Source: Candidatus Woesearchaeota archaeon
GTDB lineage: Archaea > Nanobdellota > Nanobdellia > Woesearchaeales > DSVV01
Assembly (NCBI GenBank): GCA_016219865.1
Contig: JACRKF010000033.1
Coordinates: forward strand, 1,960-65,959
Direction: 5' to 3'
Length of the DNA stretch: 64,000 nucleotides
Under the pieces are notes generated by a model. It did not search any database. It saw only the letters and a list, made by a program, of their open reading frames with translations, and was not told the DNA's origin. Position numbers and translations under genes: made by a program. Below, one piece after another: positions 13,285 to 54,391 of the stretch; within the stretch, counting starts at the first letter, position 1; each line of letters starts with the position of its first letter.

Positions 13285-13290
13285 AAAAAA

Positions 13291-14442: not shown

Positions 14443-14462
14443 GAATAATTAAAGATGAAAAG

Positions 14463-15089: not shown

Positions 15090-15114
15090 TTAGAAAGATA
15101 ACAATAAAGAATAG

Positions 15115-15681: not shown

Positions 15682-15683
15682 AC

Positions 15684-17864: not shown

Positions 17865-17866
17865 AA

Positions 17867-18961: not shown

Positions 18962-19000
18962 TCGTGCTTTTTAACATTTCTTTGAAAAAGGATTGAAAAC

Positions 19001-22480: not shown

Positions 22481-22958
22481 TAACTGCAAATAATGTAATA
22501 ATTGTCATCAATATAAGCAAGATTATCTCTGCAAGCCCGCCTGTCTTCATAAACCCTTTAATTCTAACAGGTATTGGATACAAAAACATAATGCCTTGAT
22601 GATTTAGTGTATCTAAAACAAGATGTGAAAGATAGCCAATAAAAAACGGCACAATGTAAATAACTGGAATAACTAAAGATAATAAATATGAAAAGAGAAA
22701 TAATGCTAACAATGAATGAAAAAACCCTCTGTGTGTAAAGAGATATCCAACAATCTTAACATGCTTGCCAAGTTTTGAGGTAGTAATATCAATATCTGGA
22801 ATCATTGCAGCAAAGATAATAATCGCAATATACAACTGCGGCTGCAATTGAATATATTGAAAAGTCAGCAAACCAATAAGAAATGCAAATATAAGATGGG
22901 TTTTGAATAACATAAAAAAACATCGCTCCACTAGTTTTTTCTTCAGAGAAATTTCCAA
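22473..22958 (-). CDS. Membrane-bound metal-dependent hydrolase, DUF457/YdjM family
   Basis: Multi-TM protein with PDIDI...HRGFFHS...HLVLD His/Asp motifs typical of the YdjM family. Confidence 0.55.
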   Translation of the reverse strand: MEISLKKKLVERCFFMLFKTHLIFAFLIGLLTFQYIQLQPQLYIAIIIFAAMIPDIDITTSKLGKHVKIVGYLFTHRGFFHSLLALFLFSYLLSLVIPVIYIVPFFIGYLSHLVLDTLNHQGIMFLYPIPVRIKGFMKTGGLAEIILLILMTIITLFAVII

Positions 22959-29662: not shown

Positions 29663-30046
29663 TTATGCTTTCATCTCACATAATACTTCTGATTCTAATA
29701 AAGGTGTTGTAACTTTCGTCATAATTATTTCTTCTTTCTGAATTCTTTTGTTTCTTAACAAAAGAGAGAAATGTAATTTAAGATTAATAGTGTTGTCTTC
29801 AACTTTTATAATGAACTCCCATTTGCTGAGACTGTTAAATGCATTCTTAGACAACCTAAATAGTTTTGATGCGTCAAATATCTGAATTCCTGTAATATAT
29901 CCTTCTTTATCAATATCTAACACAAAATTATTTAATTCAAGCGATTTCTTATAATCCCTCTCTTTGATCTTAAAAAAAAGAATATCATTAGATAAATCAT
30001 AGGCAGATTCTCCCTTTCCACGCGCATCTAGTTTTTTTAAGCTCAT
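29663..30046 (-). CDS. DUF2283-like small protein (putative antitoxin partner)
   Basis: YDLSNDILFFKIKE...GYITGIQIFDASKL resembles the DUF2283 Y-D-x-E-x-D-x-L-Y-I fold. Lies immediately downstream of a DUF4258-like ORF. Confidence 0.4.
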   Translation of the reverse strand: MSLKKLDARGKGESAYDLSNDILFFKIKERDYKKSLELNNFVLDIDKEGYITGIQIFDASKLFRLSKNAFNSLSKWEFIIKVEDNTINLKLHFSLLLRNKRIQKEEIIMTKVTTPLLESEVLCEMKA

Positions 30047-30047
30047 T

Positions 30048-30362
30048 TTATATCCTTGGTAAATGTTCTGTTATGAAAAAAGTAATAATTTCAATACATT
30101 CTGTCTTGACTGATATAATCATTCTGATATATCCATAATTTCTTTTGTAAAATACAGCGTAATTCTTGTTTTCCTGGATTCCTATTAAATGAGGGCTTTC
30201 TTTAGTTAAAAGATAAATAAGATAGTCTTCCTTATATATTTTTCTTTGCATCTCGCTAAGACGATATAAGGCATGCGGGGAAATGACAATATTATTTTTA
30301 TATTTACTTATTAAATAACCCCATTCTTCTTTTGATATTATCTCTATAATCTTCGTTGCCAT
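30048..30362 (-). CDS. DUF4258-like small protein (putative toxin partner)
   Basis: ISPHALYRLSEMQRKIYKEDYL matches the DUF4258 F-S-x-H-A-x-x-R-x-x-E-R motif. 1-nt spacing from the DUF2283-like ORF. Confidence 0.4.
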   Translation of the reverse strand: MATKIIEIISKEEWGYLISKYKNNIVISPHALYRLSEMQRKIYKEDYLIYLLTKESPHLIGIQENKNYAVFYKRNYGYIRMIISVKTECIEIITFFITEHLPRI

Positions 30363-32260: not shown

Positions 32261-32836
32261 ATGATAATCGGCATTACTGGATATATAGGCGCAGGAAAAA
32301 CTACTGCTGCAACATTCTGTAAAGAATTAGGTTACAGCATTGTTGATTGCGACAGCATTGGTCATGAGATTCTTGAGAAAGATACTGAAATCCAGCATAA
32401 ATTAATTGGAAGATATGGCAATAAGATAATTGGAAGAGATTTAAAGATTAATCGGGAAATATTAGCAGAACTTATTTTTAATAATCAAGAAAACATTGAC
32501 GAATTAAATAAGATAATACATCCAAAATTAAAAGCAATTGTATACCAATTGCTCGATAAAGCAGCGCAAGAAAATAAAAAAGTGATTGTTGAAGCTGCTA
32601 TACTAAAAGAACTTGAATTAGACACAAAAGTTGATAAGATTATTATCATTAAATCTGAGATTAGCATAATCTATGAGCGATTAAAGAAAAGATATTCGCA
32701 AAAACAAGTTGTTAATATCATGAACAAGCAATTGCTTCCTAAAAAGTATGATTATTTAATCTTAAATAATGAAAGCATTGAAGAATTAAAAAGACGTGTT
32801 GTTGAGATTGTAAATAAGCTGTCAAAATTCTCTTAA
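32261..32836 (+). CDS. coaE: Dephospho-CoA kinase (bacterial-type CoaE family)
   Basis: P-loop GITGYIGAGKTT, DCDSIGHEIL, and IIHPKLKAIV (the THPxI motif). Confidence 0.65.
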   Translation: MIIGITGYIGAGKTTAATFCKELGYSIVDCDSIGHEILEKDTEIQHKLIGRYGNKIIGRDLKINREILAELIFNNQENIDELNKIIHPKLKAIVYQLLDKAAQENKKVIVEAAILKELELDTKVDKIIIIKSEISIIYERLKKRYSQKQVVNIMNKQLLPKKYDYLILNNESIEELKRRVVEIVNKLSKFS

Positions 32837-32837
32837 T

Positions 32838-35054
32838 TTATTCTATTTTAACGCACAATCTATCGATGCCTATATCAACAAAGCTTAGCATTTGATTTGT
32901 TGTGTAACTTATTGATTTTCCTGAGAAACCAATTGGTTTTCCATCTTTTAATATACAAACAAATATATTCTCAAATATTGGCAGATTATTGAATGAACCT
33001 GATTTTACTTCTGCATTATTTACATTTAATTGTAGTTTACCATCTGCATTAATTATTACATTTGATCCTTGAAAGAATGGATATGCTAGTTGTTGTTTGC
33101 AATTTGTTTGCTTTTTTATCTTTGTCATATCAAGATCATTTAAGTTAATTACTAAATGTATTGCTGAAGTTGTTTTATAATTTAAATCATAATTATATAG
33201 GTGAAGCAGATCTAAATGAATTGATTCAGGTTCAAGGATGTACAGTTCATTATTGTAATAATAATATGCGTACTGATTATAATCTATTGATGGTTCAAGT
33301 ATAGTTGATGGTGTATCAGTCATATCGCTAAAAAGCAATACTCTGCTGCCATCTTCATCTTCTTTGATAACCCTAAGATAATTATGAGCAACTGTTGAGA
33401 GTTCTTGATTTTCTTGATTATCTGTTGATCCTTGACAATCAGATTTATCATATGCATTTCCAGAGTTACATATATTTGATGATTTTCGTTGAGCTTCAAC
33501 TTCTTCTGGAGTTTTATAATAACATTTTCCATAATCGATTACAGTTTTAAAGTTGTTTCCTGTTGTTGTATCTTGTGTTGCTTCTTGTATTAAAGAATAT
33601 TCGCCAAAATTACTTGCATCAGCTGCTTCATCGCATTTTTTGATTGTATCCGCAATAGTATCAGGTTCCATCTTCTTATTTGTTGCATCAATTTTATGAT
33701 TGTTAATCTGCAATAGAATTCCAAAATCCAATGTAATCTCCTGTGATGATTTATCATTTAGATTAATCTTTTTATTTTTTGTTTCTCTTTCTGATAGGAT
33801 TATTGATTTTGCATTTTCAGCTTGTTTGTATTGATCAGAACTTCTCTCAGCTATGTCTGACTTAGGAATGACATATAATTCATCATTAAATAACTCTAAG
33901 TCTGCTGCATTAGTTGAGATTAAATCAAAATGTGTTTTGGGTTCATTATTATCTATGAATAACAACTCTTTCTGCTGTCCAAGACGAACAATCCTCAAAT
34001 AATATTGTTGAACTGTTTCTGGACATTTTCCTGTTTCAATTCTCCTAGTCATACCGTCTGCGCCAACAAATTCCTTTTTCAGATTGCCATTCTTATTAAG
34101 ATTAGAGATATCATCGCATGACTCAATAAGATTTTCTTTCACCTCAATAAATGGTGTATCAAGATTTATCTTTTCACCAAGGTTTGTTTCATCAAGATTG
34201 CCTTGCGCATCAAAATAATATCTGTAAATTGCTTTTTGTTGCGCTATTGCTGGAAGAAAATCAATGCGTTGATTATTATAAGCTCCTTGTTTTAACAGTT
34301 TAAAATAATCAGTTGGATTTGTCTTAGCTATTGTTTCTTCTCTGCAAGCATCATATATTTTTTGGAGTTCTGCAAAGTTCTTATCGATTATAGGCATGAA
34401 TCCTGGAGAAGTGCAGCACATTGGATCATTAACATTGCAGTTATTTGAGCAGAATGTTATTTCATCATTCAATTTTACAATCTTTAATGGATAAACTTTA
34501 TCAAAACTTTTTATATAAACGCAGTCATAAGTCTTTGTGCTGTCATACTGTTTTATGTCAGATACATATTTCTGCATAAACAATGGATCCATTTTTGAAA
34601 AGAATTGATATCTTGTCTGTGTTGCTTTTTTTGTAATTGGTTTGCATTCAATTATTTCATTGCATAATCCAATAGCGCTTGATTTGCATAAACAAAGACA
34701 GTCGCTTGTCTTGCATTCTTGTGGAAGTTCTTTATCAAACATTCTGATATTCTTGCCTTCTTTATTATCGCCTTTTACTTCTTCAACAAATTCGCATAAT
34801 TCTGGAGTTGTATCGATTATCGCATAATCACTGTCTAATTTAAACGGTCTTTCTATTGGTTTATTATCAGCCATAATATCCAGAGTTGCTAACAGGCTAT
34901 GAAAACTTTCTTTTGCAGCTTGTTCAGTTGAATCATGAAAAAAGAGTTGATAGATTCCAACTGCAAGAATTAAAAGAACAATGAAAGCTGCTGCTACTAA
35001 CACAGCTTCTGCTACTGTTTCTAATGTCATCATCTCAGCTTTTTTATGGCGCAT
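32838..35054 (-). CDS. Large Cys-rich extracellular protein with a pilin-like N-terminus
   Basis: MRHKKAEMMTLETVAEAVLVAAAFIVLLILAVG (KKAE + TM), then 700 aa rich in Cys with no recognisable catalytic motif. Confidence 0.5.
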   Translation of the reverse strand: MRHKKAEMMTLETVAEAVLVAAAFIVLLILAVGIYQLFFHDSTEQAAKESFHSLLATLDIMADNKPIERPFKLDSDYAIIDTTPELCEFVEEVKGDNKEGKNIRMFDKELPQECKTSDCLCLCKSSAIGLCNEIIECKPITKKATQTRYQFFSKMDPLFMQKYVSDIKQYDSTKTYDCVYIKSFDKVYPLKIVKLNDEITFCSNNCNVNDPMCCTSPGFMPIIDKNFAELQKIYDACREETIAKTNPTDYFKLLKQGAYNNQRIDFLPAIAQQKAIYRYYFDAQGNLDETNLGEKINLDTPFIEVKENLIESCDDISNLNKNGNLKKEFVGADGMTRRIETGKCPETVQQYYLRIVRLGQQKELLFIDNNEPKTHFDLISTNAADLELFNDELYVIPKSDIAERSSDQYKQAENAKSIILSERETKNKKINLNDKSSQEITLDFGILLQINNHKIDATNKKMEPDTIADTIKKCDEAADASNFGEYSLIQEATQDTTTGNNFKTVIDYGKCYYKTPEEVEAQRKSSNICNSGNAYDKSDCQGSTDNQENQELSTVAHNYLRVIKEDEDGSRVLLFSDMTDTPSTILEPSIDYNQYAYYYYNNELYILEPESIHLDLLHLYNYDLNYKTTSAIHLVINLNDLDMTKIKKQTNCKQQLAYPFFQGSNVIINADGKLQLNVNNAEVKSGSFNNLPIFENIFVCILKDGKPIGFSGKSISYTTNQMLSFVDIGIDRLCVKIE

Positions 35055-35310
35055 TTAGATCACAATCTTGCTCTTGTCCAGATTCATCTTTGTACTTGCC
35101 ATTATCTGCTAATCCATCACCGTCGCTATCATCAGGAGAATTTGCTGGAACTAAGCAATCTTGCTGCGAAGTTGTTTTTTCCTTTATATTTGTCAGTGAT
35201 TTCATAAAATCCTTAACAGAACCTGAAGAAATCATAATCAGTAAGAATCCAAACACTAATGAAACAATCATTATTACAAGCCAAAATGGCATTTCTGCTT
35301 TTTTATCCAT
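35044..35310 (-). CDS. Small pilin-like protein with a C-terminal Asp-rich calcium-binding-like motif
   Basis: Real start taken as MDKKAEMPFWLVIMIVSLVF (track start 35358 is a TTG). C-terminus DDSDGDGLADNGKYKDESGQEQDCD resembles a TSP3-type DxDxDG repeat. Confidence 0.45.
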   Translation of the reverse strand: MDKKAEMPFWLVIMIVSLVFGFLLIMISSGSVKDFMKSLTNIKEKTTSQQDCLVPANSPDDSDGDGLADNGKYKDESGQEQDCDLNAP

Positions 35311-35365
35311 AAAAAACATCCTCCCTTTAGTAGTCATTACTCCTATGTTAAAAAACAATAAAAAA

Positions 35366-35379
35366 TGAACGAAGTGAAT
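35366..35379 (+). promoter_or_regulatory. 14-nt element TGAACGAAGTGAAT inside the 9-bp inverted repeat CAATAAAAA...TTTTTATTG, with no downstream plus-strand gene
   Basis: 27-mer nearly identical to the 5701–5727 copy. Lies inverted ~56 nt upstream of the minus-strand gene starting at 35310. Confidence 0.35.
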
Positions 35380-35391
35380 TTTTATTGTTTT

Positions 35392-35856
35392 TTAGTTATT
35401 TAAACAACATACTTCTCCTTTATTGTCGCAATTAGTATATAATACATAATTAATTTTTCCATCTGTTGATTTGCAGCTTTCTTTTTTTATGCAGCTTCCT
35501 TGTTGTGATTCACAAGCAAGATAGCAGCATACTTGTTCACTTGCTGAGTTATCTGTAGTTGTGCTATCAGAACCATCTGCAGATTTTAACGGATTTGTTT
35601 TTCCGCAGGATAATGCTAATGTTTGTCCTTTTTGATCACTGCATTCTGTTGAAGACATGCATTTGCCTTGTTTTGACTCGCAATCATTAAGGCTGTATCG
35701 AAATAGAGATGATTGTTTGCCAAATATAAATAACAATACAAAAAGAACTACTAATGCAAGTATTACAATCACAACTGTATTTATTGCTAAATCTGCTTTC
35801 TTATTTTTTTGGTTCATAGTTTCAACTCTTTTTTTACTATTGTATTTATTAATCAC
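35392..35856 (-). CDS. Small Cys-rich secreted protein with a duplicated CES-QG-C module
   Basis: N-terminal ...MNQKNKKADLAINTVVIVILALVVLFVL. Two copies of the module CESKQGKC...C...VCC / CESQQGSC...C...VCC. Confidence 0.45.
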   Translation of the reverse strand: MINKYNSKKRVETMNQKNKKADLAINTVVIVILALVVLFVLLFIFGKQSSLFRYSLNDCESKQGKCMSSTECSDQKGQTLALSCGKTNPLKSADGSDSTTTDNSASEQVCCYLACESQQGSCIKKESCKSTDGKINYVLYTNCDNKGEVCCLNN

Positions 35857-35901
35857 TTGTTTATTCTCATAGCTGCATTTTCTTTTTCAGCAATTACTGA
35901 T

Positions 35902-36462
35902 TCATTTTTTCTCTTCTTGTATTTTTGCCATATAATAAACTGCATCTAAATAAATAGAGCTATCTTTCGCATTTTCAATCAAGTAGTTTGCTTTCTCTTC
36001 TGCATGAACAAAGTCTTTATTTTTAAAATATAGTTGGAGCAGCACATGTGTTATTTCTTCCTTTAAATTATCATCATCTTCAATAATTAATAACTTCTCT
36101 CTTATTTCAATAACTTTTTCAATATTTAGATTATTTTCTCTGTCATATAACTGCAAGAATCTTTCTAATATCTCTTTATTTTTAACTGCATTATTAGATT
36201 GTGCAATGAATTCATAACACACAACATAAGCGCTATCTATATCTGAACTTTTTTTTTCTTGTCCAGAAAGGTAAGTTCTGCAATCAATTTCCAATATATC
36301 AACCTTTTGCTGTTGATTAAGCAGTTTTTGTTCTTCTGTAAACTTTATGAATGATATTTTATCAATAAATTCTTTACCCATGCTGTATAATGCTTTAGGG
36401 AAGACAGTAATAAATATCAGAAAGAATATTGCAACCAATAAAGCAACCAATTTCCAATTCAT
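35902..36462 (-). CDS. Pilin-like N-terminus membrane protein
   Basis: Probable start MNWKLVALLVAIFFLIFITVF preceded by KNKKKAD (track start 36507). C-terminal helical region. Confidence 0.4.
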   Translation of the reverse strand: MNWKLVALLVAIFFLIFITVFPKALYSMGKEFIDKISFIKFTEEQKLLNQQQKVDILEIDCRTYLSGQEKKSSDIDSAYVVCYEFIAQSNNAVKNKEILERFLQLYDRENNLNIEKVIEIREKLLIIEDDDNLKEEITHVLLQLYFKNKDFVHAEEKANYLIENAKDSSIYLDAVYYMAKIQEEKK

Positions 36463-36481
36463 ATCCGCTTTTTTTTTATTT

Positions 36482-36613
36482 TTAGAAAAGATTTGCAATA
36501 AATTCACCTAATTTTCCTTTTGAAAGATATATTAAAGCTATGATTACAACTAGCATGATTAATGCGAAAATCATCATGACTATCCTAAATTCCATCTCTG
36601 CTTCTTTTTTCAT
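36482..36613 (-). CDS. 43-aa single-TM micro-protein (not in the ORF track)
   Basis: Manual translation gives MKKEAEMEFRIVMMIFALIMLVVIIALIYLSKGKLGEFIANLF. Preceded by TGAGGAGATTTTTTATTATG. Confidence 0.4.
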   Translation of the reverse strand: MKKEAEMEFRIVMMIFALIMLVVIIALIYLSKGKLGEFIANLF

Positions 36614-36627
36614 AATAAAAAATCTCC

Positions 36628-37527
36628 TCATTTCTTATTTTGTTCTTCTATTTTCAACTTTGTTTGTTGTTCTGCAGGAAGTTCATTGCAGTTTAAACCT
36701 TGCAATGCTTGTTCTGAATAAGGCCATAATACTGTTGCAGCGCTCCAGTCAGCAGCTTTGTCGTTTCCTGCTGCATAACCTATTGCCCCGCCAGCAATTG
36801 TGCCAAGCAATGCATATCCTGTTGCTGCAAAAACACCAACACCAGGAATTAAGATTGTTGATGCGCCAACAACAGTGCCTGCCCCTATGCCAGCCGGAGT
36901 AGACCACATTTTATTGACATAACCTTTTTTTGCATATAGCAATAGTACTGCATAGTTTCCTTTTGTAATTATACTATCTTCTGTGCTTTGCTGAGTTTTA
37001 ATAGTTTGTGTTTCTTCAGCTGTTGTATATGGAGAAATATATTTCTTATAATTTTGTTTGCCTAAAAAAGGCGGAATAGGATTTGATTCAAGAAATTGAA
37101 GAAAACCTTTAATCTCTATATTTGCAGCAGAGCCTTCAAAAGAAACCAATGAGCAAACAACGCAATAATTCTTTTCTTCATTAAACAAAACATCAAACAG
37201 ATCTTTTTTGCCCTCACCAAATTTAAACCAGCAATATGCCATTTGATTTGCTAACTTCTTCTGAATAAGAGTTGGATCTTTTTCTGCAATAACTATTTTC
37301 TGTGTTGGACAATCTAATCCTGTGCCAGCTATATCTTCTTGTTTGAATTGAATGCCTTTTATTTTTGTTTGTGACTGAATATCAACTGACTGTCTGCATG
37401 ATTCAATTGATTTAAATTCCTTTTGTTTTTGATGAACTGGAATCAGCCATAGCAATAATACTATTAAAGTAACGATTATTATAGCTATACTCGCCATTGC
37501 ATTAAACTCATTTGCTTTTTTATTCAT
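36628..37527 (-). CDS. Pilin-like surface protein, paralogue of 37555..38322
   Basis: Start MNKKANEFNAMASIAIIIVTLIV (track start 37536 is the ATG embedded in the SD-like GGAGCGATG). Shares the DCP...M..CW.KFGE...Y.NVCV.C block with its upstream neighbour. Gly-rich C-terminal TM region. Confidence 0.5.
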   Translation of the reverse strand: MNKKANEFNAMASIAIIIVTLIVLLLWLIPVHQKQKEFKSIESCRQSVDIQSQTKIKGIQFKQEDIAGTGLDCPTQKIVIAEKDPTLIQKKLANQMAYCWFKFGEGKKDLFDVLFNEEKNYCVVCSLVSFEGSAANIEIKGFLQFLESNPIPPFLGKQNYKKYISPYTTAEETQTIKTQQSTEDSIITKGNYAVLLLYAKKGYVNKMWSTPAGIGAGTVVGASTILIPGVGVFAATGYALLGTIAGGAIGYAAGNDKAADWSAATVLWPYSEQALQGLNCNELPAEQQTKLKIEEQNKK

Positions 37528-37554
37528 AAAAAACATCGCTCCGCTCGTTTCTTA

Positions 37555-38322
37555 TCAACCATACATTACCTCACATCTGAGCATATTCTGATTATCTAAC
37601 AGTTGTTCTTCATCAAGTATTGAGAGACGAAATTCATCATCATCAGTGTTTGAAACAGGAGTTGGCTTATAATCCACAATATTATGATAAATTAGATAGT
37701 ATGTTTTTCCAGCTGCAATTTGTGATGAATAGAACCAAAATAGATCCAACTGACCATTCTTAGTGAAGTAAGAGTAGTAATTTTGATCGCTAAAAGGCAG
37801 AGTTGCTTTTGATAAATAAGTTGTAAACGCAGTTCCTAATTCAATTGGTTGTATAGCTTGTGTGCTATCAATCTGAAATTGCGCGCAAAATACACATACA
37901 TTTTTGTAGCTTGCTTTATTTCTATCAAATACACTTCCGCCTGCTTCTCCAAAGTTTTTCCAGCAGATTCTCATTCTTTCTGCTAACACAGGATAAACTA
38001 CTTGTGAGTTTAATGCTTTATATGAATCAACAATTGTCTTTCTATTGCCGTCTGCTATAGCTATTGGTGTTTTTTTCTGATCTATTTCAAGATGATCTCC
38101 ATAGAAATTAATATATGTTCTTGGGCAATCAATTGGAACAGGAGATGAATCACCTGATATTCCAATTTTCGTTGCTTTATGCACTGCTGCAGTTGCTGCG
38201 CATTTTTCATCTTTTTCCTTTGAAATTAATTTTGCTAGCAATGGAGCTTCTATTGAGAGAAATATTATTAAAGAAACAACTAATATAATTATAGCATTAA
38301 TTCTGGAAATACCTCTTTTCAT
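37555..38322 (-). CDS. Pilin-like surface protein, paralogue of 36628..37527
   Basis: MKRGISRINAIIILVVSLIIFL (K-R-G followed by a hydrophobic stretch, resembling a class III signal). Shared DCPRTY...RICWKNFGEAGG...YKNVCVFC block. Confidence 0.5.
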   Translation of the reverse strand: MKRGISRINAIIILVVSLIIFLSIEAPLLAKLISKEKDEKCAATAAVHKATKIGISGDSSPVPIDCPRTYINFYGDHLEIDQKKTPIAIADGNRKTIVDSYKALNSQVVYPVLAERMRICWKNFGEAGGSVFDRNKASYKNVCVFCAQFQIDSTQAIQPIELGTAFTTYLSKATLPFSDQNYYSYFTKNGQLDLFWFYSSQIAAGKTYYLIYHNIVDYKPTPVSNTDDDEFRLSILDEEQLLDNQNMLRCEVMYG

Positions 38323-38349
38323 TATAAAAACTCCTCCAAGTCGTTTTTA

Positions 38350-38451
38350 TTATAAACGCAATAGTCTTAAAATACCATAAACTATAGTAATTAAAATAAT
38401 TAATACTGCCATATATATAATTATTCTAACTAATGATGCTTTCTTATTCAT
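38350..38451 (-). CDS. 33-aa single-TM micro-protein (not in the ORF track)
   Basis: Manual translation gives MNKKASLVRIIIYMAVLIILITIVYGILRLLRL. Preceded by the 14-nt element (TGAACGAAGTGAGT) + TTTTTTATG. Confidence 0.35.
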   Translation of the reverse strand: MNKKASLVRIIIYMAVLIILITIVYGILRLLRL

Positions 38452-38456
38452 AAAAA

Positions 38457-38470
38457 ACTCACTTCGTTCA
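38457..38470 (-). promoter_or_regulatory. 14-nt element TGAACGAAGTGAGT (minus strand), 6 nt upstream of the 33-aa micro-ORF
   Basis: Read directly on the reverse complement. Confidence 0.35.
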
Positions 38471-38511
38471 ATTCTTATTCTTTAGAAGCAGAGGTATTTA
38501 AATGTAGTGTA

Positions 38512-38537
38512 GAGAATTTTGCTAAAGCAAAATTCTC
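38512..38537. repeat. Palindrome GAGAATTTTGC-TAAA-GCAAAATTCTC (copy d), between the divergent pilin-like island and the glycosylation cluster
   Basis: Same arms, 4-nt loop. Confidence 0.8.
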
Positions 38538-38574: not shown

Positions 38575-39573
38575 ATGGAGAATAACTTTTGGAAAGGTAA
38601 GAAAGTATTAGTCACAGGAGGTTCAGGATTTATTGGTAGCTATGTTGTTGAGCTTTTGCTTGAAAAAGGAGCAATTGTCAGCATTACTTCTTTTAAGACA
38701 AGAGGTAATAATGATGAAGACAGAAATATTGCTCAATTCAAAGATAAGATCCAGATTTTTGAAATTAACCTGCTTAATATAGATAGTTGTAAAGAGATAA
38801 CAAAAGGACAGGATATTGTGCTTAATCTAGCTGCAAGAGTTGGTGGAATTGAATTAAACAGCAAACATCCAAGTATTATGTTTAAAGATAATCTTCTTAT
38901 GTTTATGAATGTTTTAGAAGCAGCAAGAATTAACAATGTTCAGAGATTTTTAACAGTAAGCAGTGCTTGTGTTTATCCTCAATTATGCGCAATTCCTATT
39001 CCTGAAGAAGAAGGATTTAAAGATACTCCTGCGCAAACAAATGAAGGATATGGCTGGGCAAAAAGGATGCAGGAGTTTTTGTCAAAATGTTATGCAAAAG
39101 AATACAATATGAACATTGCAATAGTCAGACCATCAAATGCATATGGTCCAAAGGATAATTTTGATGCTGCAACATCTCATGTTATTCCAGCGCTTATCCG
39201 CAGAATTCTCAATGGAGAAAATCCATTAGTTGTTTGGGGCAGTGGAAATCAAACTCGATCATTCTTATATGCAACTGATTTTGCGCGTGGTTTATTAGAG
39301 ATTGCTGAGAAACATGCTGTGTGTGATGCATTAAATCTTGGCGATGAACGAGAAGTGACAATTAAAGAATTAGTTTCAATAATTTTAAAGCTCTGCAATA
39401 AAGAGAATGAGATTAAAGTTGTATTTGACACCTCAAAACCAGAAGGGCAGCCAAGGAGATGCAGTGATGTTTCAAAAGCAAGCAAAATGATAAACTATAA
39501 AACAGAGGTAAGCCTTGAAGAAGGAATACGGGGTACGATAGAATGGTACAAAAAAGAACTGCTGCGCAAGTAA
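38575..39573 (+). CDS. NAD-dependent epimerase/dehydratase (extended SDR)
   Basis: VLVTGGSGFIGSYV Rossmann motif; YxxxK catalytic region; 332 aa. Confidence 0.8.
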   Translation: MENNFWKGKKVLVTGGSGFIGSYVVELLLEKGAIVSITSFKTRGNNDEDRNIAQFKDKIQIFEINLLNIDSCKEITKGQDIVLNLAARVGGIELNSKHPSIMFKDNLLMFMNVLEAARINNVQRFLTVSSACVYPQLCAIPIPEEEGFKDTPAQTNEGYGWAKRMQEFLSKCYAKEYNMNIAIVRPSNAYGPKDNFDAATSHVIPALIRRILNGENPLVVWGSGNQTRSFLYATDFARGLLEIAEKHAVCDALNLGDEREVTIKELVSIILKLCNKENEIKVVFDTSKPEGQPRRCSDVSKASKMINYKTEVSLEEGIRGTIEWYKKELLRK

Positions 39574-40349
39574 AAAATAATTTGAAAAGCTCAAAAAAAC
39601 AGAATAACAAACAGAATGAAAAAAAGTACGATGCAACCTTATTTATACTTACAAAAAATGAGATAAAAGGATTAACTGCATTATTTCAAAAGATTCCAAT
39701 TACTAGATTTGCTGAAGTTATTGCAATCGATGCGCAATCAACTGATGGCAGCAAAGAATTCCTGCTCAAGAAAGGATTGCGGGTTATCACCCAGAAAAAA
39801 ATGGGGCGAGCTGAAGCATTCCGTATTGGTTGCGCAGTTGCAGCATATGAAAATGTTATATTTTTCTCTCCTGACGGCAATGAAGATCCAGCTGATATAG
39901 TTAAGCTTGCTTATTGGTTAGAGCAAGGATATGATATGTCAGTTGGAAGCAGATTTATGAAAGGAGGCAGAAGCGATGATGATGATGTTTGGCTTCCTAT
40001 TAGGGGCTTAGGTAATAAAGGATTTACATTAGCAGCAGATATTCTCTGGGGAGGACATTTAACTGATTCAATTAATGGTTTTCGCGGCGTAAAAAAAAGC
40101 AAATTATGGAAATTAAATCCTGACAGCGAAGGATTTGGCATTGAGTTTCAGATTTCTATCAGAGCATTGAAATTAAGATACAAGATTAAAGAAATACCAA
40201 CGTATGAAGGCGACAGAATTGGCGGTCAAAGCACAGCAAGAACATTTGCAACAGGATGGTACTTCATTAAATTGTTATTGGGGGAATTGTTTATCGGAAA
40301 ATCATTCTTGCGATGGACGCAGATTAAGAATAAATATAAGTTATCGTAA
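39543..40349 (+). CDS. Family-2 glycosyltransferase (dolichyl-phosphate sugar transferase-like)
   Basis: DAQSTDGS, FSPDGNEDP, GSRF and TDSINGFR motifs. The only in-frame ATG (39543) overlaps the preceding gene by 31 nt, so the start is uncertain. Confidence 0.7.
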   Translation: MVQKRTAAQVKNNLKSSKKQNNKQNEKKYDATLFILTKNEIKGLTALFQKIPITRFAEVIAIDAQSTDGSKEFLLKKGLRVITQKKMGRAEAFRIGCAVAAYENVIFFSPDGNEDPADIVKLAYWLEQGYDMSVGSRFMKGGRSDDDDVWLPIRGLGNKGFTLAADILWGGHLTDSINGFRGVKKSKLWKLNPDSEGFGIEFQISIRALKLRYKIKEIPTYEGDRIGGQSTARTFATGWYFIKLLLGELFIGKSFLRWTQIKNKYKLS

Positions 40350-40383
40350 TTAATTTTATTCGTAGTCAAGAATGTGTATTTTT

Positions 40384-40415
40384 CTGAGTGACCTAAGTGA
40401 ACTCGAAGAATACTA
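40384..40415 (+). promoter_or_regulatory. 32-nt element CTGAGTGA-N7-GAACTCG-N6-ACTA (copy B), 36 nt upstream of the GT4 gene
   Basis: See copy A. Confidence 0.35.
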
Positions 40416-40450
40416 TACTTTTTTAAACCCTTGCTCTTTATTCTTGTTCT

Positions 40451-41641
40451 ATGAAAGTCGCGCGTGTAATTGAAACCTTTTTACCAAACATTACAGGACC
40501 AGTTAATCAGGCGTATAAGATTTCGCTGGAATTAGAAAAAAGAAATATTAATTCTCCTGTTTTTACTACTTATTATAATGTAAAAAATGTTCCTGATGAA
40601 GAATTTATTGACTTAGTTTCTGTAAAAAGATTGCCATATGCTAGAATAATGCAATATTGCATAAGTCCTGGAATTAAAAAAGCATTAGAAGAAAGCAATA
40701 CAAAAAAGAAGATTGATATAATTCATGCGCACACTTATAGAAGCTATCAAACAGAACAAGGCTATCAATTTGCGAAAAAGCACAAGATTCCGTTTGTGTT
40801 AAGCGCCCATGGAAGTTTGCTTGGCTATGATAAATATCTCAAGAATAAACTTGTGAAGATGCCATATCTTATCTATGATTCATTAAAAAAGAAATTGCCT
40901 GCAATTAATGCAGATGCTGTTATTGTGAATTCTCAATTAGAATATGATGATGCAATTAAATTTGGTATAGACAAAAAAAAGATACATGTAATTCCTGTTG
41001 GGATTGATACTTTGTTGTATGAAAAGAAAAACAAAGATCCAAACTTTGTTTTAAAGAAAAACAAAAACGGAATATCACTCTTATTTGTAGCTCGTATCTC
41101 TCGCAATAGAAATCTTGAACTCTTGATTCATGCTCTCCATTTTATTAAGAAAAAAAATCTTAACAAAAAGTGTAAACTTTTTGTTATTGGGAAAGAGATA
41201 GTCAACAGCGATACAGACAAACGCGGATATGTTGCTGAACTTAAGCAATTAGCGCAAAAACTTGGAGTTTCTGATATGATTCAATTTGTTGGCGAAAAAA
41301 CAGGAAAAGAACTTATTGATTTATATCTTAATGCTGATATTTTTGTTTATACTTCACTATATGAAAATTTTGGTCAGCCTCTCTTAGAAGCAGCAGCAGC
41401 AGGATTGCCAATCATCTCTCCAAGAATTGGAATTGCCAGAGAGATTATAAAAGATGGAGAAACAGGTTACTTTGTAGAGTATGATGCCAAAGATGTTAGT
41501 GATAAAATAGCATTGTTGTTTGATAAAAATGAAAGAGAAATTTTTGGAAAAAGATTGCAAACAATTGTTAAGAAAAAATATGCGTGGAGTAAGATAATTA
41601 ATGAATACTGCAAATTATATCGCTCATTAACAAAAAAGTAA
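40451..41641 (+). CDS. Family-4 (GT-B) glycosyltransferase
   Basis: C-terminal E-x7-E region ENFGQPLLEAAAAGLPIISPRIGIAREII. Confidence 0.8.
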   Translation: MKVARVIETFLPNITGPVNQAYKISLELEKRNINSPVFTTYYNVKNVPDEEFIDLVSVKRLPYARIMQYCISPGIKKALEESNTKKKIDIIHAHTYRSYQTEQGYQFAKKHKIPFVLSAHGSLLGYDKYLKNKLVKMPYLIYDSLKKKLPAINADAVIVNSQLEYDDAIKFGIDKKKIHVIPVGIDTLLYEKKNKDPNFVLKKNKNGISLLFVARISRNRNLELLIHALHFIKKKNLNKKCKLFVIGKEIVNSDTDKRGYVAELKQLAQKLGVSDMIQFVGEKTGKELIDLYLNADIFVYTSLYENFGQPLLEAAAAGLPIISPRIGIAREIIKDGETGYFVEYDAKDVSDKIALLFDKNEREIFGKRLQTIVKKKYAWSKIINEYCKLYRSLTKK

Positions 41642-41644
41642 TCC

Positions 41645-43282
41645 ATGATAAATACTATTAATACCATGACAATACGTAATATCATAAAGAATATTGAACG
41701 CAAAGACATATGCATAGCAATAGCGTTCTTTCTTCTTGCATTTGTTGTTCGCTTGCCTGCAATCCATTATCCTTTAAGCGGAGATAGTGTTGTTTATACT
41801 CAGCTCACTCAAAGCATCTATGAAACTGGATCATATGCAATTGATGGAAAAATTCACACACAATATCCATTTTTGTTTCCTTTAGTAAGCGCAATCTTCA
41901 TGTTCTTTGGCAACCCTGTGCTTGCAATTAAGATCTCTGCATTTTTTTGGGCAAGCCATGTTGTTGTTATTATTTACTTAATGGGCTTACGATTTGTTGA
42001 GAGGAAATTTGCCATTGCTGCTGCATTATTGACTTTATTCAACCCTTGGTTCTTTTATTTCACAACAACATTGCCATTATCTGAAGCGTTTACTACATTG
42101 CTTGTTTTACTTGCTTATTTCTGCTATGATTTTGAAGATAATGGAAATACAAATTATCTATCTGCTTTTTTCTTTGGACTTGCAATTCTTTCACGATATA
42201 CAGCAGGTATATTTGCATTGCCATTTCTCATTGCAAAATGCGTAGTAATTATAAAAGAAATAGCAAAAGCAAAAAAAGACAAACTTCTTTTTAGCAAAAA
42301 GCTGCTCTCCGGCATATTATCCCCTATGCTCTTTATACTCTTTGTATTAGTTCCTTCTATTCTCTGGTTTTCCTTTACAATTATGCAGGCAAATGATATC
42401 AGCGCCCATGGTTACATTGGTCCTTTGCTCACACAAAGCAGTTTGTCATTAAAGAATGTGATATATAATAGCTTTTTAGCGCTGATAATAGTGCCTTTAT
42501 TATTACTCTCAGGAATGATTATCTTTTTTGCATACGGACTTTTCCAATTAAAAACTGCTGACTTGCTGCAAAAAAAGAACAACCTGCTTTGGAAATATCT
42601 TCTGATTAGCTTCTTCAGTATGCTCTTGTTTGGAATCTTCTGGTTTAGCATATTTTCACCCTATTTCCCTTACATCTGGGAGAAATTACGGTTCTTTGTT
42701 AGTTTTATTCCATTGCTCACATTATTTTCAATGATTAGCTTTAGTGAGTTATTACAACGAAATATTGCTTATAGAAAATTACTCCTTTGTTGCTTAACAC
42801 TCTTTTTTATTCTTTCTTTTATCTGCGCCTTTTTTATCACTTTTGGTTTTTTTAAGGAGAACGTTGACGCTTTTTTGCCTTCACGAGAAATATTTACCCA
42901 AAAAGCATATCACCAAAGCAAAGCAATTGCTGCAATAAATGCAGAGAGTAATTCATATAATTCTGCAGTTCAGCAGCAGGATTCATCAAAAGATGTGATT
43001 GTGATTCTCTCTGAACAAAGCATCAGAGATAAGGAACAGAAACAGTTTAGTTATTTTTTTGATGCCAAGAATGTCGAAATCATGAATAAAAAAGCAGAGA
43101 TTATTATGGTAAAAGGAGATAAAAATAAACTATTGCAACAACCGCTTATCTACGCAGAATATTCTTTAGAAGAAACAAAGCAGATACTTGCTGCTGCAAA
43201 TATTTCTTGTGCAACAATAGCAAAGATAGCTGAATATGGCAGAATAAATACAATTGGAGCTTATAGGTGCAGTGTTTCATAA
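41645..43282 (+). CDS. Polytopic GT-C-type membrane glycosyltransferase (ArnT/PMT-like)
   Basis: About 12 TM helices. The first-loop D-S-V-V-Y motif (GDSVVYTQLTQSIYETGSY) is typical of the GT39/GT83 family. Confidence 0.5.
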   Translation: MINTINTMTIRNIIKNIERKDICIAIAFFLLAFVVRLPAIHYPLSGDSVVYTQLTQSIYETGSYAIDGKIHTQYPFLFPLVSAIFMFFGNPVLAIKISAFFWASHVVVIIYLMGLRFVERKFAIAAALLTLFNPWFFYFTTTLPLSEAFTTLLVLLAYFCYDFEDNGNTNYLSAFFFGLAILSRYTAGIFALPFLIAKCVVIIKEIAKAKKDKLLFSKKLLSGILSPMLFILFVLVPSILWFSFTIMQANDISAHGYIGPLLTQSSLSLKNVIYNSFLALIIVPLLLLSGMIIFFAYGLFQLKTADLLQKKNNLLWKYLLISFFSMLLFGIFWFSIFSPYFPYIWEKLRFFVSFIPLLTLFSMISFSELLQRNIAYRKLLLCCLTLFFILSFICAFFITFGFFKENVDAFLPSREIFTQKAYHQSKAIAAINAESNSYNSAVQQQDSSKDVIVILSEQSIRDKEQKQFSYFFDAKNVEIMNKKAEIIMVKGDKNKLLQQPLIYAEYSLEETKQILAAANISCATIAKIAEYGRINTIGAYRCSVS

Positions 43283-43330
43283 CGGCATAGTTACACAAAA
43301 AATATAAAGCGAGAGATAAATCTTCATTCA

Positions 43331-43921
43331 ATGAAACATGTTAATCGCATACGAATAAAACATGATGTGGATAAATGTGTAGGAAATAAGAATTGTCTGC
43401 TTTACGCTTCAAATTATTTCTCTTTTTCGAAACAGAAAGCGCATCTGCAGGATAATTACAAAAAAGCAAATGCTGAATATAAAGATATTACTGTCAGCCA
43501 TGTTGAACTCAACAAACTGATAAAAGCTGCATATTCATGTCCAGTTAATGTTATAAGTATTTATGATCTAAAGAAAAATAAAGTTATTGTTGACAATTCA
43601 ATTCATTCAGAATCAGCTCTGGATATTGTTGCAGAAAAACAAACCAGTCATGAGATGATATTTGATAAGACAGGATATTTTCTTGTGAAAGTAAATCAAG
43701 AACTAAAACAGATAGAAGTGGGATTATGCAGAAAAAGGAATATTGTTGCAGTAAAGATAATAGGCAAGACACCTGAAGATATTTATAAAACAATAATTAA
43801 ACATAAATTATTATCGCGATTTGATCATGCTGCATATCTTGGAAGAGAACTGCAAAAAGCATATATTGCTCTGCAACAAAATTTGGATTATGTTCAAGAT
43901 GATGAATTAAAATTCTTTTAA
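43331..43921 (+). CDS. Ferredoxin-like Fe-S domain protein with a C-terminal domain of unknown function
   Basis: DKCVGNKNC...CPVNVISI resembles a single-cluster ferredoxin motif. C-terminal 100 aa are unassigned. Confidence 0.35.
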   Translation: MKHVNRIRIKHDVDKCVGNKNCLLYASNYFSFSKQKAHLQDNYKKANAEYKDITVSHVELNKLIKAAYSCPVNVISIYDLKKNKVIVDNSIHSESALDIVAEKQTSHEMIFDKTGYFLVKVNQELKQIEVGLCRKRNIVAVKIIGKTPEDIYKTIIKHKLLSRFDHAAYLGRELQKAYIALQQNLDYVQDDELKFF

Positions 43922-43963
43922 CGAAAGCTTTTAAAAGGAACCTTTATTCTCAAACAATACGGC

Positions 43964-43977
43964 ATTCACTTCGTTCA
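43964..43977 (-). promoter_or_regulatory. 14-nt element TGAACGAAGTGAAT (minus strand) as the loop of a GC stem TACGGC...GCCGTA, 26 nt upstream of the plus-strand oxidoreductase gene
   Basis: Read directly. Inverted relative to the downstream gene. Confidence 0.35.
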
Positions 43978-44002
43978 GCCGTACGTATGGTGTTGTATTT
44001 TC

Positions 44003-45031
44003 ATGGTAAACATAGCAGTAATTGGAACAGGTACTTGGGGAAAAAACCACGTAAGAGTTCTCAGCGAATTAGGGGAAGTTAATCTAGTAAAGATCTGTGA
44101 TATGAATGAAAAGTCTTTGCTGCCATTGCAAAAAACATTTCATGTAAGCGCTACAACTGACTATAAAGAAATTCTCAATGACAAGACTATCCAAACTGTA
44201 AATATTTGCACTCCTGCTTCTATGCATTATTCTGTTGTAAAAGAAATGCTTCTTGCTGGAAAAGATGTGCTTGTTGAAAAGCCTTTAACTCTTGACATTG
44301 CGCAATCAGAAGAGCTTGCAAAGATAGCAAAAGACAATAACAGGATATTGATGGTTGGCCATATTTTCAGATTTAATGCTGGAGTAAATAAATTAAAAGA
44401 TGAAATCAAAAAAGGAACATTCGGAAAAATACGATTTATGTACGGAGCAAGGATGGGTTTAATGACACCAAGGGTTGATTGCGGAGTTATTGCTGATTTT
44501 GCGCTTCATGATATTGATACTTTTTGTTATCTGCTGGATGAAATGCCAACAGAAATCACTTGTGTTGGGCAATCATATAAAGATTCTGGAAATCAATCTG
44601 CTCAACAACAATCACAACAATCATTTGAAGATGTTGGATTTATAACATTAAGATTTAATTCAAATATTATTGCAAATGTTGGAGTAAGTTGGTTAACTCC
44701 AAAAAAAGTAAGAGAATTATGGGTTGTTGGCGAGAAGAAAAGCGCTTATCTAGATTATTTAACACAAGAATTGACTATATTTGACAAAGGAATTGTGCCG
44801 CAGTACAATTCCTTTGGAGAATTCAGTTTAATCACTAAACAAGATGGTGATGATATAAAGCCATTTGTTCCTGTGCGAGAGCCTTTGAAAGATGAATTGC
44901 TTCATTTCATTGATTGCATTAACACAAGAAAACAGCCAATTGTTAATGGAGAAATAGGAACGCAAATGGTTAAGATAATCAATAAAGCATATCAAGCATT
45001 AAAAGAAAAGAAAACAATCTCTATAAATTAG
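44003..45031 (+). CDS. Gfo/Idh/MocA family NAD(P)-dependent sugar(-nucleotide) oxidoreductase
   Basis: IAVIGTGTWGKNH Rossmann motif and the EKPL catalytic motif. Confidence 0.8.
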   Translation: MVNIAVIGTGTWGKNHVRVLSELGEVNLVKICDMNEKSLLPLQKTFHVSATTDYKEILNDKTIQTVNICTPASMHYSVVKEMLLAGKDVLVEKPLTLDIAQSEELAKIAKDNNRILMVGHIFRFNAGVNKLKDEIKKGTFGKIRFMYGARMGLMTPRVDCGVIADFALHDIDTFCYLLDEMPTEITCVGQSYKDSGNQSAQQQSQQSFEDVGFITLRFNSNIIANVGVSWLTPKKVRELWVVGEKKSAYLDYLTQELTIFDKGIVPQYNSFGEFSLITKQDGDDIKPFVPVREPLKDELLHFIDCINTRKQPIVNGEIGTQMVKIINKAYQALKEKKTISIN

Positions 45032-45076
45032 TTTTTATCACGTTAGTTTTTAATAACAATATTTAAGAGGACAAAG

Positions 45077-45823
45077 ATGTACAAGAAAAATAAGATTGCA
45101 GTTGTTGTTCCAGCATATAATGAACAAGGAAAGATAGAAAAAGTTATTTCTGATATTAAAAATAAATCTTCAATAGTTGACAAGATTATTGTTGTCAATG
45201 ATGGCAGCAAAGATAATACAATGAAAGAAGCAAAGCAAGCAGGAGCATTTGTAATAACACATGCTGTGAATCAAGGTGCAGGAGCTGCAATTAGAACAGG
45301 ATATAATTATGCGCTGCAGAAAAATTTTGATATTCTAGTAACAATGGGCGGAGATGATCAAGATGATCCTGCATATATTGAAAGACTTGTTTCAGAGATT
45401 GTAGATAAGGGATATGATTTTGTGCAGGGTTCTAGGTATAAAGTAAAAGGATTGGTATTAAAACAGCCATTGTTTAGAAGAATAACAACAACATGTTATT
45501 CATTATTATTTACACTTGCAGCTGGAAGGTCTGTTACTGATGGCTCAAATGGATTTCGCGCATTTCGGACTGATATTTTAAAAAAAGTTAACATAAATTA
45601 TTCAAGTATGAACAGATATGAGATGGAACCTTATTTGTTGTTAAAAACAATCAGGAAAGGTTTTCGTTATAAAGAAATTGGCGTGCCAAAATATTGGCCA
45701 AAAGGAAAAAGTTACAGCAAAATGATACCATTCAAAAGCTGGTGGAGTATATTGCGTCCAATAGTTTATTCATTGCTGGGATTTAATATTGAAAAAAGAT
45801 TTAGGAAGCTGTCAAATAGCTGA
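45077..45823 (+). CDS. Family-2 glycosyltransferase
   Basis: VVVPAYNEQ...VVNDGSKDNT...GSRY motifs. Confidence 0.8.
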   Translation: MYKKNKIAVVVPAYNEQGKIEKVISDIKNKSSIVDKIIVVNDGSKDNTMKEAKQAGAFVITHAVNQGAGAAIRTGYNYALQKNFDILVTMGGDDQDDPAYIERLVSEIVDKGYDFVQGSRYKVKGLVLKQPLFRRITTTCYSLLFTLAAGRSVTDGSNGFRAFRTDILKKVNINYSSMNRYEMEPYLLLKTIRKGFRYKEIGVPKYWPKGKSYSKMIPFKSWWSILRPIVYSLLGFNIEKRFRKLSNS

Positions 45824-54319: not shown

Positions 54320-54391
54320 AAAAAATCTCCTCACTTTGTTCGTCGATTTTTTAAAATAATAAGTTATTCATGAGCAAAGCGATTGAATAAC

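Follow-up and report, generated by a model that had tools for sequence, protein, structure and literature searches.

A conserved block of surface-protein genes with prepilin-type leaders in a Woesearchaeota archaeon: candidate filament subunits linked to murein hydrolases

A stretch of 64,000 nucleotides (nt) from contig JACRKF010000033.1, called the window below, was analysed in an archaeon labelled Candidatus Woesearchaeota. The study was focused on a block of eight genes on its minus strand (32838-38451), referred to as the island, whose genes were labelled g8 to g1 in the order of transcription. The explanation that we prefer, with a probability of roughly 0.55, is that the island encodes subunits, processed as prepilins, of a surface filament or pseudopilus on which murein hydrolases are carried as well. 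The evidence comes from the reality and conservation of the genes, a common leader motif, paralogy, the architecture of the locus and its linkage to hydrolases. The island is the middle or core part (blocks B and C) of a modular locus of 14-18 genes. This locus is present in at least ten metagenomic or metagenome-assembled genome (MAG) loci and is specific to Woesearchaeota/Pacearchaeota-type DPANN archaea. A preliminary description of this DNA had taken the island for a minor-pilin/adhesin operon. The class III-type leader agrees with that idea, and so does the size spectrum, since small subunits of about 80 amino acids (aa), mid-size subunits and one large Cys-rich protein fit major and minor pilins with an adhesin. 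However, the island is not an autonomous operon, no pilin hidden Markov model (HMM) or pilin fold was matched, and no motor genes lie nearby. We take the finding for a type IV filament-type subunit locus, and there is a real chance that it is a distinct apparatus.

The preliminary description had listed eight consecutive co-directional genes, and all of their open reading frames (ORFs) were found in place. The first gene of the block, g8 (38350-38451), encodes 33 aa, namely MNKKAS and a transmembrane (TM) helix. The next, g7 (37555-38322), encodes a 255-aa protein with MKRGIS, a TM helix and a globular alpha/beta head with six invariant Cys. Its paralogue g6 (36628-37527, 299 aa) starts with MNKKANE and a helix and has an inserted Gly/Ala-rich hydrophobic hairpin at approximately residues 205-255. 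The g5 product (36482-36613, 43 aa) is composed of MKKEAEM, a TM helix and GKLGEFIANLF. In g4 (35902-36507), 201 aa counted from the GTG at 36507, NKKKADM and a TM helix are followed by a helical domain. The g3 protein (35392-35817, 141 aa) starts with NKKADL, its KKA being followed by the DLAINTVVIVILALVVL helix and two tandem six-Cys modules. The g2 protein (35044-35310, 88 aa) starts with MDKKAEM and has an EMPFWLV helix behind KKA and an acidic, D-rich tail. The last gene, g1 (32838-35054), encodes 738 aa starting with MRHKKAEM, in which the EMMTLETVAEAVLV helix behind KKA precedes a large Cys-rich (22 Cys), beta-rich ectodomain. The spacers are 27 nt (g8-g7), 27 nt (g7-g6), 14 nt (g6-g5), 84 nt (g4-g3) and 81 nt (g3-g2), while g5 and g4 overlap by 26 nt and g2 and g1 by 11 nt. 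Two of the lengths first given had to be revised. The likeliest start of g3, described with 154 aa and a duplicated Cys module, is the ATG at 35817, although the duplication itself is real. The g4 gene stands as well, but its length of about 186 aa does not, because the GTG start at 36507 is required to take in the KKKAD motif. The common N-terminus (KKA/KRG and a TM helix) was borne out in all eight proteins as K-[K/R/E]-[A/G] followed by a membrane helix.

This shared N-terminus has the form of an archaeal class III signal, with a basic residue at -2, Gly or Ala at -1 and a hydrophobic helix behind. Cleavage by the archaeal class III signal peptidase (SPase III) is set by the -2 (positively charged), -1 and +1 positions (PMC3387779). 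A putative site of this type can be recognised in all eight island proteins, g5 having E at -2 here and K in its relatives. Orthologues of the island genes have retained the leader, as have almost all genes of the wider locus. When all six frames of the window were scanned for K[KRE][GA] with a strongly hydrophobic 16-mer behind it, ten ORFs were returned, which are the eight island genes and two at 13270-15089. The other exported or membrane proteins of the window, for example an S8 protease, a 331-aa protein and a 150-aa protein, do not have the leader. The statistics were obtained from 110 proteins of at least 70 aa encoded in blocks of 10 related loci, and an N-terminal hydrophobic helix was present in 109 of them. 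The last K/R before the helix was followed by G (47 proteins), A (24) or S (13), together 77% of 109, and K/R preceded this residue in 79 (72%). The +1 residue was Q in 26 (24%), V in 16 and D/E in 20. These figures agree with the published rule and are, at the level of sequence, the chief argument for a prepilin-type signal. Class III-type leaders are also found on non-pilin proteins assembled by pilus-like machinery (PMC3387779; 10.64898/2026.04.22.720090).

The wider locus was defined by comparison with related metagenomic and MAG loci or contigs (L001-L030 and the P0053 contig). The contigs around members of the g6/g7 family were fetched, in part through a locus search with a 12-member subset of the g6/g7 alignment, and all of the encoded proteins were clustered into families (F02, F03 and so on). 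The canonical order is co-directional and begins with a giant protein (1,500 to more than 2,500 aa), followed by proteins of about 168, 350, 173 and 180 aa (positions 1-5). Then come a micro-ORF, a g7-type gene, a g6-type gene, in some loci another micro-ORF, and a gene of about 200 aa (positions 6-10). Positions 11-13 hold two genes of about 80 aa (g3 family), two of 190-250 aa and one of 390-500 aa in the g1 slot, and positions 14-17 hold genes of about 310, 185 and 200 aa and a large peptidoglycan hydrolase. The order from the micro-ORF through the M23/SLT or M74 hydrolase is conserved in L003, L006, L016, L021-L023, L029, L030 and the P0053 contig, although the blocks of the last are inverted relative to each other. 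L003 has exactly the gene order of the island, g8-g7-g6-g5-g4-g3-g2-g1, and then CoaE, GIDE and LemA, with identities of 35-57%. The neighbours of the other loci are housekeeping genes, for example SecY/EMC3 and NAC/Sec61beta. The giant-protein block is absent from the window.

The hydrolase end of the locus is present in the window as a detached block D (13270-17864, plus strand). It encodes proteins of 390, 208 and 188 aa, each with KKA and a TM helix, and a 726-aa protein with KKS and a TM helix. The last three (14463-17864) belong to families F03, F04 and F05, with which the canonical locus ends, and in L006, L016, L021, L022, L023 and L030 these families come after the island genes on a single strand. 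The 726-aa protein (15684-17864) contains a Peptidase_M74 murein endopeptidase domain (E=1.2e-17). The 390-aa protein gave Amidase_3 at 23 bits, which is below the cut-off. In the related loci, the terminal hydrolase has M23 and SLT domains (L006 and the P0053 contig) or M23 (L029). The hydrolases bear the leader themselves, as KKGQ with IFVISV behind Q in the related loci and as MKKINKKS followed by QLFMILLV in the M74 protein here. At the sequence level, they thus resemble bindosome components, with a catalytic ectodomain behind an SPase III-type leader and helix, apart from motor genes.

Both micro-ORFs, g5 and g8, are real genes under purifying selection. Near-identical homologues of g5 were found in L001, where the gene caller had called it, and in L002, and a 49%-identical one in L003 retains the C-terminal GKLGEF(I/L)AN motif. 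The g8 homologue in L002 is identical at 27 of 33 residues. In the coding frame, the ratios of non-synonymous to synonymous differences (pN/pS) from Nei-Gojobori counts were 0.07-0.09 (g5) and 0.21 (g8). The non-coding frames of the micro-ORFs gave about 1 to 3.5, including 0.96 and 3.3 for the other frames of g8. A lack of conservation in relatives would have spoken against these genes and was not seen. A TM micro-ORF also occupies the g8 slot, upstream of the g7-type gene, in L003, L007, L016, L019, L021-L023 and L030, and it was called as a gene in L007 and L030. The micro-genes of L016, L019 and L021-L023 form family F13. Micro-genes of 41-49 aa are located in the g5 slot of L029 (48 aa), L030 and the P0053 contig (49 aa), and L030 has a 42-aa and a 41-aa micro-gene on either side of its g7/g6 pair. 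The g5 protein is a short paralogue of the g2 N-terminus (BLASTP E=1e-4) with a common PFWLV-type helix.

Start sites point in the same direction. The preliminary description had credited both micro-ORFs with a Shine-Dalgarno and T-run start context, and TTTTTTATGRATAARAAAGCR is indeed shared by g5 and g8, and by g2 and g6. Its four copies in the window are all in the island, against 0.17 expected. In the window as in L001 and L003, the KKA/KKG motif of g4 precedes its first ATG. The GTG with which g4 starts is located within the codons for GEF of g5, and the same 26-nt dual-coding overlap occurs at window 36482-36507, L001 1850-1875 and L003 11956-11981. The conservation of this overlap in three genomes suggests translational coupling of g5 and g4. 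Database annotation has passed over these genes, as had been noted. The NCBI hypothetical proteins HZA96_04090 (g1), HZA96_04110 (g6) and HZA96_04115 (g7), encoded on a contig of 189,767 bp in a Candidatus Woesearchaeota archaeon MAG, are 100% identical to the island proteins. The tags of g1 and g6 leave three tags in between, for g2 to g4, and therefore g5 is unannotated at NCBI. The public gene call of L003 likewise leaves the micro-ORFs in the g5 and g8 slots uncalled. In place of the g3 homologue of L003 (13033-13419, 128 aa, GTG start), it gives a 70-aa ORF read in a different frame (13274-13486). Wrong-frame calls such as this one, micro-ORFs and overlapping starts other than ATG point to systematic gaps in the gene calling of DPANN genomes.

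The g6/g7 pair had been described as paralogous, and the alignment statistics agree: the BLASTP E value is 4e-8, and the full-length alignment contains six invariant Cys. Word-indexed searches found two or three close relatives each for g7, g6 and g1. With a cut-off of E<=1e-3, an exhaustive profile search with g6/g7 returned 1,615 cluster representatives (taken at 50% identity), of which 296 reach E<=1e-10; almost all have a length of 250-330 aa. In 60 aligned members, the six Cys and AEEMRxCWYxFGEGK...CxxC are conserved, most sequences start with KKAQ, KKGQ or RKGQ and a helix, and no Pfam domain was found. The named members come from Woesearchaeota and 'Nanoarchaeota' MAGs. A g7-type gene followed by a g6-type gene is adjacent in every related locus. 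The AlphaFold2 model of g7 built with the family alignment was confident, with a predicted local distance difference test score (pLDDT) of 85 and a predicted template modelling score (pTM) of 0.81. It contains helix 7-23, helix 31-50 and then the alpha/beta head, and this succession of a TM helix, a second helix and a globular head may be read as a lollipop-like layout. The g6-type proteins of L006, L013, L016, L021, L022 and L023 have a pair of Gly/Ala-rich hydrophobic segments at approximately residues 220-290, whereas the g7-type proteins have none. All of the locus proteins are single-pass except the g6-type.

The small subunits are the second recurrent element. The duplicated module reported for g3 was confirmed: its 12 Cys form two C-x6-C-x5-C-x11/14-C-xn-CC units with spacings of 6 / 5 / 11-14 / 6-25 / 0. 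An alignment of g3 with 17 relatives gave the framework C-x6/7-C-x3-6-C-x9-14-C-x5-7-CC with GG before the second Cys. The spacings 6-7 / 3-6 / 9-14 / 5-7 / 0 were found in 16 of 18 small subunits, and the two remaining relatives each deviate in one spacing. Six-Cys small subunits of about 80 aa were found in L006, L008, L013, L016, L021-L023 and L029, and every canonical locus contains two adjacent copies of this family. The beta-defensin/big-defensin framework is C-x6-C-x4-C-x9-C-x6-CC, and the g3-type spacing together with the G-G before the second Cys mirrors it. Unlike defensins, the g3-type module is archaeal and is attached to a pilin-like helix, and no small subunit scored above the gathering score of the curated defensin models. 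The Pfam matches, all below the cut-offs, were Defensin_big (2 members, best E 0.034), Defensin_beta (2, 0.71), Defensin_beta_2 (1, 0.083) and Inhibitor_I68 (2, 0.0042). PF13400 (Tad, TadE/G-like) matched 3 of 18 small subunits weakly, the best at E=0.0014, which is also below the cut-off. It is quite possible that the likeness reflects convergence on a small disulfide knot.

The other island proteins are less uniform. The g4 protein occupies the slot of the F09 family of about 200 aa. A g2 homologue of 57% identity lies at the same position in L003, and the start context of g2 matches those of g6 and g8. The DDSDGDGLAD tail of g2, reported as calcium-binding-like, is present but is only loosely conserved in L003 (DSIDKNHNGLDD). 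Homologues of g1 have 64% and 35% identity, in addition to a 759-aa protein of L003. It sits in the slot of the 390-498-aa F02 proteins, to which it has weak N-terminal similarity. No match of g1 was found in Pfam or the PDB, and its AlphaFold2 model from three homologues was unusable (pLDDT 43). As a set, the eight island proteins gave nothing above noise against Pfam, NCBIfam, PHROG and PADLOC, and searches of PDB sequences with g1, g3 and the g6/g7 profile were likewise empty.

A mechanism can be proposed from these observations. At first, the archaeal prepilin (class III signal) peptidase would cut the basic leader ending in [K/R]-[G/A], leaving a hydrophobic helix followed by an extracellular disulfide-rich head. 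Second, after Sec insertion and cleavage, a type IV filament motor encoded elsewhere in the genome would pack the N-terminal helices into a thin filament or short pseudopilus. Third, for the bulk subunit the best candidates would be the g3-type proteins of about 80 aa, with g2, g4, g5, g7 and g8 as possible minor, priming or base subunits and g1 as a possible distal Cys-rich adhesin. Fourth, g6 is more likely to stay in the membrane because of its extra hydrophobic hairpin, as a base component or a membrane-inserting element. Fifth, because the locus also encodes hydrolases bearing this leader (in the window, the M74 protein at 15684-17864), the apparatus would expose a bacterial partner to wall-cutting enzymes, which would result in attachment and local breaching of the wall. 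The locus may thus be a way for these archaea to attach to or attack bacteria.

Several results weigh against a filament. The models Pilin_N, Class_IIIsignal and the archaeal flagellin N-terminus gave no match even at E<=1 against the eight island proteins and ten L022 proteins. A type IV filament core by definition has a secretion ATPase and a TadC/ArlJ-type platform together with a signal peptidase of class III (10.64898/2026.04.22.720090). No secretion ATPase, platform or prepilin peptidase was found in the 64-kb window or in about ten related loci of 17-21 kb, as read from the window proteins and the gene tables of L003, L006, L029, L030 and the P0053 contig. There are precedents for such a separation, as the genes of standalone pilin loci and of the bindosome lie apart from the motor genes (10.64898/2026.04.22.720090; PMC3387779). 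A fold search with the confident g7 model matched no pilin and no other solved fold, and therefore the g7 head has no recognisable solved relative, pilins included. The two extra hydrophobic segments of the g6-type proteins are unexpected in a membrane-extractable pilin or filament subunit and are hard to reconcile with it. The g5 leader, KKEA followed by E, has E instead of K/R at -2, although its relatives have KKA, and several +1 residues of the island are acidic (E, D), which is less typical. The bacterial target is deduced from the hydrolase domains alone.

These points give weight to the main alternative, a serious one although we consider it less probable, that the proteins are plain signal-anchored (bitopic) surface proteins. 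Anchored in the membrane of the archaeon itself, they would join wall hydrolases in an envelope complex or one for cell contact, with no prepilin cleavage and no filament. The basic leader would then reflect the positive-inside rule, and the common K-K-A/G would reflect descent by duplication. Such a complex would account for the lack of pilin HMM matches, of motor genes near any locus and of a pilin-like g7 head in the fold search. The extra hairpin of the g6-type proteins suits a resident membrane protein, and the micro-proteins of 33-49 aa, almost a TM helix alone, resemble subunits of membrane complexes. However, the positive-inside rule predicts neither that 77% of 109 proteins from unrelated families have G/A/S right behind their last basic residue nor that 24% have Q at +1, and the motif is missing from the window's other secreted or membrane proteins. 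Besides, the small subunits have a highly conserved hydrophobic helix (VEMSMNVIIIAAIGLLILLILAFLVV) of a kind typical for subunits that polymerise.

The preferred reading, that of a filament or pseudopilus carrying murein hydrolases, can be extended to an undescribed type IV filament-derived machine of DPANN archaea with effectors among its 'pilins', which we hold to be rather unlikely as a whole. A filament of about 80-aa subunits would display beta-defensin-like knobs, and the g7/g6 pair of new fold would contribute a glycine-rich membrane-inserting hairpin in g6. Together with a giant adhesin and pilin-anchored M23/M74/SLT hydrolases, the machine would dock onto bacterial, not archaeal, hosts and open the cell wall. 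If true, it would be the missing molecular basis of the proposed bacterial episymbiosis or 'vampirism' of Woesearchaeota and Pacearchaeota.

A pseudopilus for DNA uptake or secretion, similar to a competence pilus or type II secretion system (T2SS), was also considered. Short, periplasm-less and built from these subunits, it would serve for the export of the giant protein and the hydrolases or for the import of DNA, with no adhesion. Each locus does contain many minor-pilin-like genes, as Com and T2SS do, with a wall hydrolase alongside as in monoderm envelope-spanning machines, and a giant secreted protein heads the canonical locus. On the other hand, no ComEC/ComEA-like, secretin-like or ATPase genes are present in any locus, no DNA-binding family was matched among the proteins, and an archaeon without a murein wall needs no hydrolases for its own envelope. 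We regard this explanation as improbable.

An integrated mobile-element, viral or conjugation-type module with a VirB1/PrgK-like M23+SLT hydrolase is highly improbable. What recalls one is the terminal M23+SLT protein with its N-terminal TM helix, which we take to resemble the PrgK/TraG-type hydrolases of monoderm conjugation systems, the very weak TM-driven matches to DUF3262, TraL_transposon and CD3337/EF1877, and the modular, rearranging locus. PHROG and PADLOC gave no match, and no relative was found in IMG/VR, by tblastn against phages and plasmids or by a BFVD fold search. The GC content of the island (0.29-0.33) is equal to that of the flanks, no VirB4/VirD4, relaxase, integrase or capsid genes occur in any locus, CoaE, GIDE and LemA are conserved beside the L003 locus, and the neighbours elsewhere are housekeeping genes. 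A viral, mobile-element or defence origin was rejected on these grounds. A type IV secretion reading was rejected as well, as the locus gene tables contain no VirB4-type ATPase, VirB6-like polytopic protein or coupling protein.

The regulatory elements of the island were also located. A TATA-box-like TTTAAATA (38495-38502, minus strand), about 40 nt upstream of the g8 start, is the probable promoter of the block, and CAYTACATTTAAATAC in this region is kept between the window and L002. A palindrome, GAGAATTTTGCTTTAGCAAAATTCTC (38512-38537), lies upstream of this box, between the island and a divergent NAD-dependent epimerase gene. What had been described as a palindromic repeat is thus a single perfect palindrome of 26 bp. 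It occurs once in the window (0 expected) and is not conserved in L002 and L003, so that membership of a repeat family was rejected; possibly it is an operator. In the g3-g2 spacer, an AT-only hairpin (35349-35394, minus strand; 16 bp, 100% complementary, 14-nt loop) followed by T-runs is a possible internal terminator or processing site. A 42-nt inverted repeat (35342-35383 and 38453-38494, 79% complementary), which contains TGAACGAAGTGA, ties the upstream region of g8 to this spacer.

The setting of the island in the window is as follows. Ribosomal S4e and L32e, RPA-like OB-fold proteins and SecY, assigned by Pfam, are archaeal genes in the window. A tRNA scan and an Rfam search of the window found no tRNAs and no RNA family. 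The LemA/GIDE-like pair said to flank the island was confirmed by Pfam, but CoaE (32261-32836, plus strand) lies between the pair and the island. A divergent glycosylation cluster (38575-45823, plus strand) is directly upstream of the island and encodes an epimerase, a GT2, a GT4, a PMT_2-like 545-aa membrane glycosyltransferase, an oxidoreductase and a second GT2; it could modify surface proteins. The locus of the P0053 contig is likewise flanked by an epimerase and RPA. The L030 locus begins right beside SecY and EMC3/YidC-like insertase genes (L030 7322-9628), and the same pair is located in the window at 53525-55822, about 15 kb from the island. Block D belongs to a second cluster (13270-22480, plus strand), preceded by a gene for a 174-aa helix-turn-helix protein (12749-13273). 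After block D, this cluster contains a 364-aa Cys-rich protein (Sec signal, C-terminal TM) and a 1159-aa Sec-signal protein. In the latter (19001-22480), ELIKAIVMEESGGNP (EESGGNP) resembles the catalytic motif of family-1 lytic transglycosylases, an activity that is not claimed here as there was no Pfam match at E<=0.01. A gene for a YdjM-family membrane hydrolase (22473-22958, minus strand, E=1.8e-26) converges on the end of the 1159-aa gene with an 8-nt overlap. Adjoining the second cluster is a membrane-anchored subtilase of 1239 aa (8881-12600, minus strand; Peptidase_S8, E=2.6e-40), whose C-terminal region is long and rich in Asn, Thr and Ser and which has no K-K-A/G leader. Elsewhere, a 127-aa DUF2283 protein and a 104-aa protein have a toxin-antitoxin-like arrangement (29663-30362, minus strand), and a PIN-domain gene is located at 49017-49379.

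Woesearchaeota and Pacearchaeota rank with the most abundant archaea that have not been cultured. This study provides handles on whether and how they parasitise bacteria, namely cleavage-site peptides, candidate filament subunits and enzymes. New here are a family of 1,615 representatives with a confidently predicted fold that matches nothing solved, and two annotation-missed micro-genes as conserved components.

Minor pilins of the type IVa pilus and the PilY1-type adhesin are thought to prime and tip the filament. The locus is similar to this tip complex and to the T2SS pseudopilins in that a pilin-like set and a large non-canonical adhesin are encoded together. Nevertheless, it is archaeal, has a basic -2 and no conserved E5, shares no sequence or fold similarity with them, and has 8-15 subunits rather than 4-5. 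The type IV filament 'system 1' or Epd pilus loci of Methanococcus maripaludis and the standalone pilin loci (Makarova 2016, PMC4858521; Sivabalasarma & Albers 2026 preprint) have in common with it a very small candidate major subunit, several minor pilins, an adhesin-like large protein and the position apart from motor genes. Here, on the other hand, the locus lacks an ATPase, a platform and a dedicated peptidase, its proteins were not detected as members of known pilin arCOG or Pfam families, and there are up to about 15 subunits with Cys-rich heads, micro-proteins, a giant protein and peptidoglycan hydrolases. In the Sulfolobus bindosome, a prepilin-type leader and helix are likewise placed on functional, non-structural proteins (here the murein hydrolases) away from the assembly genes. 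Its cargo is solute-binding proteins, whereas here it would be wall-degrading enzymes and Cys-rich domains, with no adjacent ABC transporter and in one large conserved locus.

The nearest precedent in the same lineages is Module 98 of Castelle et al. 2021 (PMC8204110), a set of 51 families, most of them hypothetical, that are specific to Pacearchaeota and Woesearchaeota. Among them are the giant lytic-transglycosylase proteins of fam00969, for which binding to, or attack on, bacterial walls was proposed (PMC8204110), and a predatory lifestyle was proposed from the same enzymes (Vigneron et al. 2022). The module and our locus agree in their lineages, in mostly hypothetical co-occurring families and in very large extracellular murein-hydrolase proteins. 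The module was described from phyletic co-occurrence alone, without gene order, prepilin-type leaders, micro-ORFs or the g6/g7 family, and our full-text literature searches on this question found no paper that describes these features of the locus. The large murein-hydrolase proteins of these archaea have so far been noted as isolated curiosities (PMC8204110, PMC9723730), and they are now physically tied to 14-18 proteins that form a conserved set and bear prepilin-type leaders.

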